Shown here: positions 11,859 to 15,274 of the stretch, piece by piece
Layout of the letters: each line of letters begins with the position of its first letter
How positions within the stretch are numbered: position 1 is the stretch's first letter
IMG/VR virus record: IMGVR_UViG_2563366911_000003
Source of the DNA: a virus
Lineage: Duplodnaviria > Heunggongvirae > Uroviricota > Caudoviricetes
Length of the DNA stretch: 40,184 nt
Strand: one strand, 5' to 3'
The notes under the pieces: generated by a model
Database searches by the model: none
What the model was told of the DNA's origin: nothing
The model's input: only the letters and a program-made list of their open reading frames with translations
Translations under genes and position numbers: made by a program

Positions 11859-11893
11859 TACTATGTTTATAATGTTGAAAAAGAGTCTAATAG

Positions 11894-11925
11894 TTGACAT
11901 TGTATGAAATATGATTGTTATATAA
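11894..11925 (+). promoter_or_regulatory. Candidate sigma70 promoter for the STAND NTPase gene
   Basis: TTGACA at 11894-11899, followed by AT-rich -10 candidates (gttata/tataaa) and an aagg RBS before the ATG at 11960; the exact -10 is ambiguous. Confidence 0.35.
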
Positions 11926-11959
11926 AATGATTTTTTTGGAGACTGTTTAAGGTAAACAA

Positions 11960-12763
11960 ATGAAACCAGAATACTTAAGGAAAATAGAATCATTGCAACG
12001 TGAGGTTGATGATTTCCATCCAGTGCTAAGAGCGCTTCTACCACGTTTGCCGACTGTTACACATGTTGAATATAAGCAAGGACCATCAGAAAAAGGTGCT
12101 GATTTTGTCATAATTAAACGAGATGAGGCATTAGATGAGGAAATATATATTGGGGTTATTTGTAAGGTTGGAAAGATAATTCAGTCAAATAGTGAGGTCG
12201 AACGACAAATAGAAGAGTGTCAATTATACCCACGCTTTATTTCTTCTGGCTCTAAGAACATACATTTGAATGAAATTTGGGTTGTTACTAATTCATCAAT
12301 CTCAAATAATGCTCAAGAAAAAATCTACTTAAAATTCAAATCTACAAATATAAAGTTTATAGAAGGTGAGAAAATATGTTCTTTAATCAGTAAATATTAC
12401 CCAGAGTTTTGGGATTTCGAATCCATTAATTATGAGCAATACTTAACAGATACATTGCAAACCATAAGTGATACTCCTGAAAGTTCTTTTTTTGGTAGTG
12501 TTGGCATAAATAACCTTATTGATAGATATGTAAGCAAGGAAGATCATAAAAAACGCAGGCACAGGCCGTTAAAACTGTATAGTGTTGTGAGAGCCGAGAG
12601 ATTTATTTTTTTAGAGGGAACTGTTGGCTCCGGGAAAAGTACTTTGCTGAAACAGCTAATTAAAAAAATAAAAGAAGAATATTCTTACGAAAAAGACTAC
12701 ATCCTTCCAGTATTTTGCCAATACAAGGATGTTCTAGAAAAAAACTCAATATTGAAAATATAA
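11960..12763 (+). CDS. STAND/NACHT-like P-loop NTPase, N-terminal part (unknown N-domain plus Walker A); reading frame ends just after an A7 tract
   Basis: Walker A GTVGSGKST at 12617-12643; AT-rich codon usage; stop at 12761-12763, 17 nt after the A7 run at 12738-12744. Confidence 0.6.
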   Translation: MKPEYLRKIESLQREVDDFHPVLRALLPRLPTVTHVEYKQGPSEKGADFVIIKRDEALDEEIYIGVICKVGKIIQSNSEVERQIEECQLYPRFISSGSKNIHLNEIWVVTNSSISNNAQEKIYLKFKSTNIKFIEGEKICSLISKYYPEFWDFESINYEQYLTDTLQTISDTPESSFFGSVGINNLIDRYVSKEDHKKRRHRPLKLYSVVRAERFIFLEGTVGSGKSTLLKQLIKKIKEEYSYEKDYILPVFCQYKDVLEKNSILKI

Positions 12764-14217
12764 TACAAAGTGTATTAAGTAAGTACAAAATACAACATGA
12801 TGGGAATATTTTATTAATTGTTGATTCGGTGGATGAAGTAAAGGAATCACTTGAGGAAAGGCAAAACAACTTCAGGGACATTGTAGAGAAAGTATCCAGG
12901 AGTGATAAAGTTCGATTACTAGTTGCTTCAAGAATTATGGACTCTCTTCAGGACTATGAAGTTATCGATCAGATGTTTGCAAGATACTCGATAATACCAC
13001 TTAGCACAGGTCAAATAATCGACTTTGTAGATAAAATCTGCAATGACATTAAAATAACAAACAAGCTTAAGAATGGTATAGAAAAAACACCACTATTTAA
13101 ATTCATTCCCAGGACTCCAGTGAGTGCTATTCTTCTAGCAAGAATACTCTCTGATGAGATTAAAGAATTACCATCTACAATGACAGAACTATACTCAAAA
13201 TACAGTGAGATAGTATTGGGACGATGGGATACATCTAAGGGATTATTATCGCAAACAGAATATGATGTAATAAGTAATATATTAGTAGAAATTGCGATGT
13301 TTATGATGGATAACTCTCTAAACTGCATATCAATTTCTGAAGTGCAGGACATGTTTTTAAATTATTTGGCCAAAAGAAACTTGAATGTTGATGAGGACAA
13401 ACTTTTCAAAAGACTAATTTATCGCAGTGAAGTAACAACAGTTAATGTTAGAACTAATACGTTCTCATTTCTACACAGATCATTCATGGAGTATTTTTAC
13501 GCTGAAGGACTTAGGAAGCGTGGCTTAATAGACATAAATGATAACATTTATGATATTTATTGGGCAAATAGTTATTTCTTCTATTTTGGTTTATTAAGAG
13601 ACAATGAATATCTTATTGATAAAATTAATGAACTTAAACCTAGTAACGATAAAACAAGATTTTTAAGGTTATTTTATAACGGTTCTTTTTATTTGGCTTC
13701 ATATCTAACTCCGTATAAAAAAATAGCAAGGGGAGTCCTTTTATCGTATATAGATGCAGGTAAATTATATGTTGATATTCTCCATGGAAATACCGACATC
13801 CCGCTGAAGGAGTTTTCACCAGTAGCTCTTCTTTGTATTTTTACAAAGTGTTTAAGTAACAATTACGCATATGATTTTTTCAAATCTGCCTTGGAAGACT
13901 TGTCAGTTCAAATTGAACAATATGAGGAAATTGGGGAACATATTGATTATGCACGTTTCTTCATAGCATCAACACTGAATGAGCTCGGGGATAAATCCGC
14001 ATTTGATAGCTTAGTGGAAAAAAATAAATTAGGTGTTTTGATTAATTTAGGGATAACTCACGTTACAGACGACTCAGGGCTACTAAGCACTACGGTTGAT
14101 AAGTACCTGAAAAAATTCAATAAAAAAGTACGAAGTAACCATGATATGTCTAATTATATATCTAAGTTATATGAGGAATCTACTGGTTCCTTACGTACAA
14201 ACCTACAAATTCAATAA
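12715..14217 (+). CDS. STAND/NACHT-like NTPase, C-terminal part (Walker B hhhhDSxDE plus ~450-aa C-terminal domain), in a different frame from the N-terminal part
   Basis: Walker B-like LLIVDSVDE at 12811-12837, about 63 aa after the Walker A lysine; the frame is open across the A7 tract; the called start is a TTG, so it is probably not an independent gene. Confidence 0.6.
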   Translation: MPIQGCSRKKLNIENIIQSVLSKYKIQHDGNILLIVDSVDEVKESLEERQNNFRDIVEKVSRSDKVRLLVASRIMDSLQDYEVIDQMFARYSIIPLSTGQIIDFVDKICNDIKITNKLKNGIEKTPLFKFIPRTPVSAILLARILSDEIKELPSTMTELYSKYSEIVLGRWDTSKGLLSQTEYDVISNILVEIAMFMMDNSLNCISISEVQDMFLNYLAKRNLNVDEDKLFKRLIYRSEVTTVNVRTNTFSFLHRSFMEYFYAEGLRKRGLIDINDNIYDIYWANSYFFYFGLLRDNEYLIDKINELKPSNDKTRFLRLFYNGSFYLASYLTPYKKIARGVLLSYIDAGKLYVDILHGNTDIPLKEFSPVALLCIFTKCLSNNYAYDFFKSALEDLSVQIEQYEEIGEHIDYARFFIASTLNELGDKSAFDSLVEKNKLGVLINLGITHVTDDSGLLSTTVDKYLKKFNKKVRSNHDMSNYISKLYEESTGSLRTNLQIQ

Positions 14218-14227
14218 TAAATAGATT

Positions 14228-14266
14228 GTCACATTGAAGGTAACGTATCGACCTTCAATGTGATTA
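14228..14266 (+). terminator. Hairpin (13-bp perfect inverted repeat) after the NTPase ORF
   Basis: tcacattgaaggt / loop / accttcaatgtga, 10 nt after the stop at 14217; no strong U-tract, so it may instead be a protein-binding palindrome. Confidence 0.45.
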
Positions 14267-15274
14267 TTATCCTCTTAATAATATAGCCTAGGCTACTTTC
14301 GACTTTCTGAGGCACAGAGATTGCAGAATGTATCAATCATAGTGAAGCTATCGTAAATGTCCGCACGTTTCTACAGATAGTCAGATTTGAGTGAACTGCC
14401 TCCGCAAAATGCTGGTTGGGGCCTGACTTAATACATCTGAAGAAGTGTTGGTTATGTTTGGCTGTTATGAATCAGATAATTGATATGTTGATTAGAGGAG
14501 AAGATAGAATCAACATGGTTGTTTTTCGTATAACTATTTGTTTTACTTTTAGTTTATGCATTCTGTGTGTTAGGAGTAAGTTATTAAAGTTTAACCAAAA
14601 AATCTTGATGTCGTCCACATAGATTACTGTTACTGAACCTTATTGTGTGCATTAGTTGTGTTTTGAAATTTCAATTTAATTATTTATGATGTGTATTTTT
14701 AACGATAAATGTTTTCTGGGTAAAAGACAGTGGGGGATGAGATAGGCAATATATCATTAATCTTGATTATCTCCAGGATGCCTTACTGTTCATATAAATA
14801 AATCACATGCGCATCAAGTAATGTAAAGGCATCCTTTTAGTTATATCTTATTAAATGTTAATGCTTTGAGTGGAAAACATGATTCCAGCAATTATCATAT
14901 GGCTACTTTATAAAAATAATGCCCATATAAAACAACAAGTGAAAAGGATTACGGATAAAAAAGGAGCGAGATGTGCAAAGTTGTTATTTTCCATGTTTAA
15001 CCACCTTAAACAATTGATGATGACGGGATGATTGCATCTGCAATGCTTTTATTGAAATGTTATGATAAAAAAGAACTTTTTCATAACATTAAAATGCAAT
15101 TTATCTAATCGTTTTTAATAATAAGTGTGGTATTTCTATCCTTGTACCAGCTATTTGATATGTAGTGTTTGTTCATGCTATGTGGAGCTTTACACCATAG
15201 CCAGTTTATTTATACTTTATTCGTCAGCCTGAACAACTGGCATCTGCTGCACTGCGCCATAGAGAGATTGAGAA

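Follow-up and report, generated by a model that had tools for sequence, protein, structure and literature searches.

We analyzed a 40,184-nt stretch of DNA, hereafter referred to as the window, whose gene order (intR, xisR, ralR, recET, kilR, sieB, racR, ydaS-V, an island, DUF1367/1364/1133, tRNAs, lysis genes, trkG, and head/tail genes) is that of a Rac-like prophage. The island contains an interrupted gene for a NACHT-type NTPase (Table 1). Its GC content in the composition profile was about 0.32–0.36 (0.32–0.34 over ~12000–15000), as compared with 0.46–0.52 in the flanks. Its left edge falls where the annotation of near-identical genomes cuts a DUF977 gene short, and RefSeq describes the identical sequence as "DUF977 family protein, incomplete, missing C-terminus". 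On the right, the island ends shortly before a DUF1367 gene at 15275. The NACHT gene is thus flanked by replication genes (ydaU, ydaV, DUF1627, DUF977) on one side and by the DUF1367/DUF1364/DUF1133 late-regulatory block on the other. The composition and the flanking genes confirmed the initial annotation, which had placed the gene in an AT-rich island of a prophage, in the slot between the replication genes and the nin/Q region; the prophage is lambdoid (Rac-like). The gene hokD, found downstream in other alleles, was looked for and is absent from the window. A megablast comparison of the region with the phage collection gave no match. Within the collections searched, the element is known solely as a prophage in bacterial genomes.

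Table 1. Features of the AT-rich island and its interrupted NACHT gene, in window coordinates.
Feature	Position	Strand	Basis
DUF977-family gene without C-terminus; left-junction marker for the island	11514–11858	+	ORF list
AT-rich island in the Rac-like prophage: bNACHT25 gene and ~1 kb of AT-rich, largely non-coding sequence; edges approximate	11850–15200		composition profile
Upstream regulatory region: TTGACA at 11894–11899; AAGG Shine-Dalgarno-like element at 11949–11952, 7 nt 5' of the ATG	11860–11959	+	sequence
ORF1, 267 aa: bNACHT25 residues 1–261 (nuclease domain with D48, linker, Walker A), then six out-of-frame residues (NSILKI) and a stop	11960–12763	+	ORF list, alignment
PD-(D/E)xK (Mrr/MspJI/FokI-like) DNase effector domain, N-terminal, residues ~1–155	11960–12424	+	AlphaFold model, Foldseek, invariant residues
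NACHT nucleotide-binding domain, residues 214–353 of the repaired protein; spans the frameshift	12599–13017	+	Pfam PF05729
Walker A, GTVGSGKST, G220–T228	12617–12643	+	sequence
A7 run, site of the 1-nt deletion; the intact A8 covers codons E260, K261, and K262	12738–12744	+	alignments to intact alleles
Continuation of the gene in the second frame, bNACHT25 residues 263–752 and stop	12745–14217	+	ORF list, alignment
NACHT-type Walker B, LLIVDSVDE (hhhhD[GAS]hDE)	12811–12837	+	sequence
C-terminal NCH1 domain, residues 576–741	13684–14181	+	Pfam PF22728
Hairpin: perfect 14-bp stem, 9-nt loop, 11 nt past the stop codon	14228–14264	+	folding

The initial annotation had also credited the gene with promoter-like and hairpin signals of its own. 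A perfect TTGACA lies upstream of the gene, but no suitable −10 hexamer follows it at the right distance, and a consensus promoter scan found no strong plus-strand site upstream of the ATG. Promoter-like sites numbered 23, against 17.4 ± 4.3 in shuffled sequences; this count is not clearly above expectation, as AT-rich DNA would lead one to expect. The claimed promoter is weak, and the scan gave no support for a strong one dedicated to the gene. The hairpin is real: its folding energy was −20.3 kcal/mol (z = −5.14), and 0 of 200 shuffles folded as well. It was missed by the terminator scan because its loop is longer than 8 nt, and it lacks a clean T run after it. It is likely a transcript-end hairpin.

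The gene does not form a single uninterrupted chain of ~750 aa and is divided instead into frames of 267 and ~490 aa. The first carries the Walker A motif, and the second, open to the stop codon at 14215–14217, carries the Walker B motif. The initial annotation had reported both motifs, in two frames, at exactly these coordinates. It had also put Walker A at the end of the first frame, which in fact runs on for ~40 codons and overlaps the second frame, called automatically as 12715–14217 from an upstream TTG. Two A7 runs are present within the overlap, at 12662–12668 and 12738–12744. Pairwise alignments to the intact alleles L001 and L003, both with A8 at the second run, assigned the missing base to that run. 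The first run was rejected as the lesion site, as a shift there swaps 'IKEEYSYEKDYILPVFCQYKDVLEK' for unrelated residues and the alignments put the gap at 12738. Beyond the single indel, the gene showed no further decay.

Restoring one A in the second run, a fusion by one added A having been proposed beforehand, yielded a 752-aa protein 100% identical to WP_001702659.1 (0 amino acid differences). This accession is given for bNACHT25 in the "Accession numbers" section of Conte et al. 2025 (PMC12169576) and in the preprint of Kibby et al., where bNACHT25 originates from E. coli ECOR11 (bioRxiv 10.1101/2022.07.19.500537). The repaired gene differed from the CDS annotated as WP_001702659.1 in E. 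coli LC-1302-2020 by 3 nt, all synonymous. These data established the identity of the gene and its lesion. Genomes annotated with WP_001702659.1 carry the gene in the same Rac-like prophage context, and the analysis places the native location of bNACHT25 in the moron slot of Rac-like prophages. It is very likely that 11960–14217 represents bNACHT25, an NLR-related E. coli protein already known to act against phages as a single gene, in a frameshifted form that is carried as a moron in the AT-rich island of a Rac-like prophage.

Owing to the loss of one A from A8, translation from the ATG stops after residue 261 and six foreign residues. The truncated product keeps the nuclease domain and Walker A, but Walker B, the remaining NACHT module, and the sensor are missing from it. 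Since the break falls between Walker A and Walker B, the window copy is most likely non-functional. The gene family was correctly predicted to act in antiphage defence, as the repaired protein is the experimentally characterized bNACHT25; judged from its sequence, however, the window copy is probably inactive and its defence lost, rather than the active superinfection-defence gene that had been envisaged.

In the repaired protein, the Pfam NACHT profile (PF05729) scored 37.2 bits, against a cutoff of 26.7. Together with the alignments to intact alleles, this score verified the earlier proposal of one STAND/NACHT NTPase whose gene is broken by a frameshift within a run of A. Walker A conforms to GxxxxGK[ST], with G223, G225, and K226 invariant in 46 homologues. 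Walker B conforms to hhhhD[GAS]hDE, as defined in the Fig. S1 legend of the Kibby preprint (bioRxiv 10.1101/2022.07.19.500537); in the definition of Koonin and Aravind, this motif separates NACHT from the other STAND clades. D289, D292, and E293 of the motif were invariant in the same 46 homologues (identity 31–92%), as were D48, K226, and H506. At the C-terminus, NCH1 (PF22728) was matched with 132.2 bits (E 2.2e-38).

The N-terminal domain scored 17 bits with Pfam Mrr_cat, under the 21-bit cutoff. Its AlphaFold model had a mean pLDDT of 79.6, exceeding 85 across residues 1–150, and the best Foldseek matches were the cleavage domains of the nucleases MspJI, AspBHI, and FokI (E 6.5e-5 to 9e-3; Foldseek probability at least 0.99). 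The residues E15, D48, K69, Q83, and E86 are invariant in the family, and include the catalytic-type Asp (D48) and Lys (K69). The resemblance has limits: identity is only 11–16%, Ile or Val stands here where the canonical (D/E)-x-K motif has its acidic residue (V-I-C-K69), and bNACHT25 has no DNA-recognition domain of the restriction-enzyme type. A phmmer search of the protein against PDB sequences gave 0 hits, with no solved bNACHT25 structure found, and the N-terminal profile returned nothing meaningful from PDB sequences. The nuclease fold was recognized only by the fold search (Foldseek), not by the PDB sequence searches.

The Pfam scores for NACHT and NCH1 and the N-terminal fold match agree with the published architecture of bNACHT25, a clade 6 protein with a PD-(D/E)xK DNase at the N-terminus, the NACHT module in the centre, and NCH1 at the C-terminus (PMC12169576; bioRxiv 10.1101/2022.07.19.500537). 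The domain architecture of the window copy, which has this same order once the A is restored, was thereby established. The initial annotation had recognized nothing in the N- and C-terminal parts and had called the protein possibly undescribed. Searches of PADLOC-DB v2.0.0 gave only weak generic P-loop matches (HerA, VakA, mad8, TRIP13), with no specific model, and every NCBIfam match was far below its cutoff, as might be expected of a new STAND defence protein whose N- and C-terminal domains were both novel. Neither collection holds a model for this clade, so that these negative results do not imply novelty. The notion of a previously undescribed protein is refuted by the exact amino acid identity to bNACHT25, which has been studied experimentally in at least two papers; the Pfam recognition of NACHT and NCH1 and the restriction-endonuclease fold at the N-terminus also speak against it.

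Among related systems, bNACHT32 (WP_057688292), also of clade 6, is 81% identical to bNACHT25, shares its architecture, and defends against MS2 with a D48-dependent DNase (PMC12169576). It is an allele or orthologue distinct from bNACHT25. Our searches recovered homologues at ~80–82% identity (P0009–P0013). One 82%-identical homologue (L012) adjoins a PIN/MazE toxin-antitoxin pair, outside a Rac-like prophage. The best named matches in the PDB profile search were the eukaryotic NLRs NLRP14, NLRC4, and NLRP3, all of which share with bNACHT25 a NACHT NTPase core that bears both Walker A and a Walker B of the D[GAS]hDE type. Unlike them, bNACHT25 lacks LRRs, CARD, and PYD, and has a DNase effector and a bacterial NCH1 helical C-terminus. 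S508 of bNACHT25 has been equated with S445 of NLRC4 (bioRxiv 10.1101/2022.07.19.500537). As H506 sits two residues before S508, we infer that it corresponds to H443 of NLRC4. The Avs/AVAST systems share the tripartite logic of effector, STAND NTPase, and sensor, and many have nuclease effectors. However, they belong to another STAND clade, no PADLOC Avs model matched, and sensing by bNACHT25 is reported to be indirect, via DnaJ, and not to involve direct binding to a phage protein.

Intact bNACHT25 defends against MS2-like RNA phages, T2, and T4 and requires the host chaperone DnaJ, and MS2 infection leads to DNA degradation by bNACHT25 (PMC12169576; bioRxiv 10.1101/2022.07.19.500537). The D48A substitution abolishes the defence (PMC12169576). 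This DnaJ-dependent defence through DNA degradation was shown in the literature for the intact allele only. According to that literature, the 752-aa protein is kept inactive by its NACHT module together with the NCH1/helical region at the C-terminus. It senses infection by an MS2-like RNA phage, T2, or T4 indirectly, as host proteostasis is perturbed in a DnaJ/DnaK-dependent manner, and the MS2 coat protein alone is enough as the trigger. NTP-dependent activation of the NACHT module then frees the N-terminal PD-(D/E)xK DNase, which degrades cellular DNA and stops the infection.

Homopolymer indels are the commonest error of long-read assemblies, and the frameshift could be such an error of sequencing or assembly, the organism carrying an intact bNACHT25. 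Two other split alleles (H4 and H14) each have one extra base in a T7 or A7 run and come from complete, probably long-read, genomes. However, 195 public contigs (NCBI, ENA, and Logan assemblies) of several independent origins encode exactly this 267-aa A7 product, and draft assemblies, for example that of E. coli 2-222-05_S3_C2, are among them. An independent complete genome, that of E. coli 19KM1766N, also carries the A7 allele, within a prophage that shows 99.85% identity across 39.4 kb. Furthermore, the change from A8 to A7 was observed in two allele lineages ~2.3% apart (that of the window and L002, and that of L006, the latter on 38 contigs). The recurrence of A7 in many assemblies and in two lineages indicates that it is not a sequencing error, an explanation we consider very unlikely.

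A second explanation keeps the A7 allele alive, through low-level synthesis of the full-length protein by −1 ribosomal frameshifting (K262N) or transcriptional slippage, or through a reversible A8/A7 phase-variation switch. Frame arithmetic from the ORF coordinates showed that ORF1 reads gaA AAA AAC across the A7 run (12738–12744), an in-phase X_XXY_YYZ heptamer, and that a −1 shift exactly regains the downstream frame. As the deletion created an in-phase A_AAA_AAC, a small amount of full-length product may arise by −1 slippage of the ribosome or by slippage of RNA polymerase. An AAGGA element (12725–12729) lies 9 nt upstream of the heptamer, and the 82%-identical homologue natively reads K-N-L at the K262 position, suggesting that K262N is probably tolerated. 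The recurrence of the deletion in two lineages and the lack of secondary decay are also compatible with a living allele. If this explanation were true, the A run would be an on/off or dimmer switch, by which a self-toxic abortive-infection nuclease stays silent or at trace levels in most cells of a prophage-carrying lineage. Nevertheless, neither the 82%- nor the 60%-identical homologue conserves the A8 run, which is thus not a conserved regulatory feature. Other alleles are broken at T7 (CDS 647), at A7 (CDS 1759), or by IS insertions, a pattern resembling random decay in an AT-rich gene. Downstream of the heptamer, the sequence showed no convincing stimulatory hairpin, and an unstimulated A_AAA_AAC shifts poorly in E. 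coli. Runs of 7–8 nt are, moreover, short for classical contingency loci. Slippage or switching at this run is therefore unlikely.

Both ORFs are still open and both fragments are widespread, the second ORF (500 aa) occurring on 124 public contigs. RefSeq annotates the second CDS from an internal GTG (window 12829). The two ORFs might accordingly form a functional split system, in which the 267-aa product, a free nuclease that bears Walker A, is regulated in trans by a separately translated NACHT-remnant/NCH1 protein. The position of the break, inside the core of a P-loop NTPase whose Walker A and Walker B must share one fold, argues against this arrangement, and no ribosome-binding site or promoter stands out for the second ORF. 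In addition, the full-length homologues sampled across Gammaproteobacteria were all single polypeptides of ~750–800 aa (46 of 46), and just 1 nt separates the window copy from the characterized single-chain protein. We regard a split system as highly improbable and retain the reading of a frameshifted, probably inactive bNACHT25.

Disruption of the gene is frequent in E. coli: 6 of 18 complete genomes had disrupted copies, and most lesions fall at homopolymer runs or are IS insertions. This frequency agrees with the idea that abortive-infection systems, being costly, are often lost. The A7 fragment is commoner than the exactly matching intact allele, on 195 versus 117 contigs; this excess could reflect clonal sampling, and is also compatible with an allele that is tolerated or even useful. 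As the gene was already known, with bNACHT25 cloned, challenged with phage panels, and studied for its mechanism earlier, the discovery value of the locus is small. Its by-products are the population-level record of disruption and an annotation correction: the pair annotated as "hypothetical protein" and "NACHT domain-containing NTPase", for example in E. coli 19KM1766N, is one frameshifted bNACHT25.

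Re-reading of the sequence confirmed the initial annotation of an NTPase gene split over two frames, and its motif coordinates were exact. The gene spans positions 11960-14217 (+), and the second frame remains open as far as the stop codon at 14215-14217. Pairwise alignment with the copy in E. coli LC-1302-2020 revealed one missing A and three substitutions. Positions 12738-12744 form an A7 run in the window versus A8 in the intact LC-1302-2020 copy, whose annotation shows one CDS for a 752-aa 'NACHT domain-containing protein' (WP_001702659.1). Re-insertion of one A gave a translation identical to WP_001702659.1 at 752/752 residues, indicating that the three nucleotide substitutions are synonymous. 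The overlap of the frames contains two A7 runs, and the repair proposed in the initial annotation, one A into an A7 tract, is correct provided that it is made in the second of them. This accession is listed as 'bNACHT25: WP_001702659.1' in Conte et al. 2025, PLoS Biol (PMC12169576), and as 'bNACHT25 (E. coli ECOR11; WP_001702659.1)' in the preprint of Kibby et al. (10.1101/2022.07.19.500537). Because the repaired translation equals the protein that both papers name bNACHT25, the window gene is a frameshifted bNACHT25 allele. The A run encodes E260-K261-K262 (wild-type numbering); ORF1 therefore carries bNACHT25 residues 1-261 and then NSILKI before its stop codon.

Features of the window and their coordinates
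Feature	Position	Strand	Remark
RalA sRNA	1557-1735	+	antitoxin to RalR (type I system); 225 bits
DUF977-family gene	11514-11858	+	C-terminus truncated exactly at the GC drop; from annotation of related genomes
TTGACA	11894-11899	+	perfect; good -10 element absent
ORF1	11960-12763	+	267 aa
Walker A, GTVGSGKST	12617-12643	+	in the ORF1 frame
Walker B, LLIVDSVDE	12811-12837	+	in the second frame
Hairpin after the stop	14228-14264	+	perfect, 14 bp; -20.3 kcal/mol, z = -5.1
tRNA-Thr(TGT)	17069-17144	+	prophage-borne, just 3' of the DUF1133 gene
tRNA-Gly(TCC)	17148-17222	+	prophage-borne, just 3' of the DUF1133 gene
trkG	~20040-21497	+	placed by collinearity with the annotated 19KM1766N prophage

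bNACHT25 is a clade 6 bNACHT: a PD-(D/E)xK DNase lies at the N-terminus, the NACHT module in the centre, and the NCH1 domain at the C-terminus (PMC12169576; 10.1101/2022.07.19.500537). In the repaired protein, Pfam detected NACHT at residues 214-353 (37.2 bits; cutoff 26.7), NCH1 at residues 576-741 (132.2 bits), and, under its cutoff of 21, Mrr_cat at residues 23-143 (17 bits). Residues 1-205 were modelled with AlphaFold from an alignment of 20 sequences; the model had a mean pLDDT of 79.6 and was well ordered up to approximately residue 150. Its best PDB fold matches were the nuclease domains of MspJI, AspBHI, and FokI (E = 6.5e-5 to 9e-3; probability at least 0.99). Based on the Pfam and fold matches, the two termini that the initial annotation could not place are assigned to a predicted restriction-endonuclease-fold effector and an NCH1 domain, respectively. 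Full-length homologues of about 750-800 aa, with identities as low as 32%, were found in Citrobacter, Providencia, Serratia, Enterobacter, Aeromonas, Pseudomonas, Stenotrophomonas, and others. Among 46 of these, the invariant residues included E15, D48, K69, Q83, and E86 in the nuclease part, G223, G225, and K226 in Walker A, D289, D292, and E293 in Walker B, as well as R325 and H506. A search of PDB sequences found no deposited structure of bNACHT25 itself, and the family profile matched NLRP14, NLRC4, and NLRP3.

The intact protein defends against T2, T4, and Emesvirus ssRNA phages (MS2, for example), and D48A abolishes both defence and infection-induced DNA degradation (PMC12169576). Equivalents of human NLRC4 disease alleles (the H443-equivalent histidine; S508P) cause D48-dependent constitutive toxicity (10.1101/2022.07.19.500537). 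The MS2 coat protein suffices for activation without binding to bNACHT25. Activation also depends on DnaJ, a chaperone of the host, and on the interaction between DnaJ and DnaK, a dependence that suggests a guard-type mechanism (PMC12169576). The protein class, defence role, and prophage moron context of the initial interpretation were right, but not its novelty: the finding is a disrupted allele of a defence gene already known and characterised.

The lesion, gaA AAA AAC in the ORF1 frame, is a heptamer of the X_XXY_YYZ type and is in phase. Slippage by -1 here would regain the frame and yield a full-length protein with K262N, and K-N-L is natural at the corresponding position in an 82% homologue. 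We consider it very improbable that the A7 allele still works, and several points speak against a switch by design. Homologues at 82% and 60% identity lack the A8 run, breaks in other alleles lie elsewhere in the gene, and no clear stimulatory structure was seen in the sequence 3' of the heptamer. Without stimulators, frameshifting at this heptamer is inefficient in E. coli, and runs of 7-8 nt are short for phase variation. The window copy of bNACHT25 is most likely inactive, a probable consequence that the initial annotation overlooked, as the frameshift leaves ORF1 with residues 1-261 only.

A sequencing artefact is an unlikely source of the frameshift, because 195 contigs of public assemblies (NCBI, ENA, and Logan) encode exactly the 267-aa product of ORF1 and the A7 allele is also present in the complete genome 19KM1766N. 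The 500-aa ORF2 product was found on 124 contigs in the same collections. By megablast, 18 of 5,426 complete E. coli genomes (H1-H18) carry the locus, always on the chromosome, and six are disrupted (H1, H4, H14, H16, H17, and H18; loci L002 and L004-L008). Two disruptions involve IS elements, an IS3 insertion that removed the 5' end (H17) and an IS1-associated truncation (H18). The other four are indels in homopolymers, distributed over three runs: H1 and H16, from allele lineages ~2.3% apart, share the A8 to A7 change of the window, H4 has T7 to T8 (CDS position 647), and H14 has A7 to A8 (CDS position 1759). The remaining 12 were counted as intact, H2 and H5 by direct reading and ten by single-CDS annotation and match length. 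Exact-sequence counts, which are influenced by clonal sampling, were 117 contigs for intact bNACHT25, with 195 and 57 for the A7 and T8 fragments of its lineage, and 567 for intact WP_033801850.1 of the second lineage, with 38 for its A7 fragment. Despite this sampling, the sequences show apparent inactivation to be frequent and mainly to affect homopolymers within the gene, whose GC content is 32%. In RefSeq, the pieces of disrupted copies are entered as individual CDSs ('hypothetical protein'; 'NACHT domain-containing'), not as a pseudogene.

The AT-rich composition was borne out by a GC of 0.32-0.34 over ~12000-15000, versus 0.46-0.52 on both sides. Of the flanking signals proposed initially, the hairpin held, whereas the promoter is weak: TTGACA lacks a good partner, and a promoter consensus scan listed no + strand site 5' of the ATG. 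The island's left edge is the truncation point of the DUF977 gene, and all the related genomes that were inspected have this gene annotated as truncated in the same way. Since the truncation coincides exactly with the GC drop, insertion of the bNACHT25 island may have destroyed the 3' end of this gene.

Over 39.4 kb, the entire window matches a prophage of E. coli 19KM1766N at 99.85% identity. The annotation of this prophage begins with intR, xisR, rcbA, ralR, recT, recE, kilR, sieB, and racR, and continues with ydaS/T/U/V, DUF1627, the truncated DUF977 gene, and the split NACHT gene. DUF1367, DUF1364, DUF1133, tRNA-Thr, tRNA-Gly, lysis genes, and trkG follow, and then terminase, head, and tail genes as far as J. 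Based on this gene order, the window gene is placed between the replication and late-regulatory blocks of a Rac-like lambdoid prophage, the slot named initially. RalA/RalR is a hallmark of the Rac prophage. In genera other than E. coli's, homologues adjoin integrases, transposases, resolvases, and toxin-antitoxin pairs, not Rac-like prophage genes.

Two independent Citrobacter contigs carry a conserved 345-aa gene (L010 6827-7864; L011 3461-4498) ~570 nt downstream of a 92%-identical NACHT homologue; it had no Pfam match and no counterpart 3' of the gene in the window. In the second lineage (L003, L005, and L006), the NACHT gene is followed ~670 nt downstream by hokD, which encodes a type I toxin; the HokD-coding sequence is absent from the window, and about 440 nt of the window (~14470-14907) do not align to this version. 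The same spacer carries IS3 or IS1 insertions in other genomes. Another patch of low GC (0.38-0.41), at 19501-21500 within the prophage, contains the trkG position.
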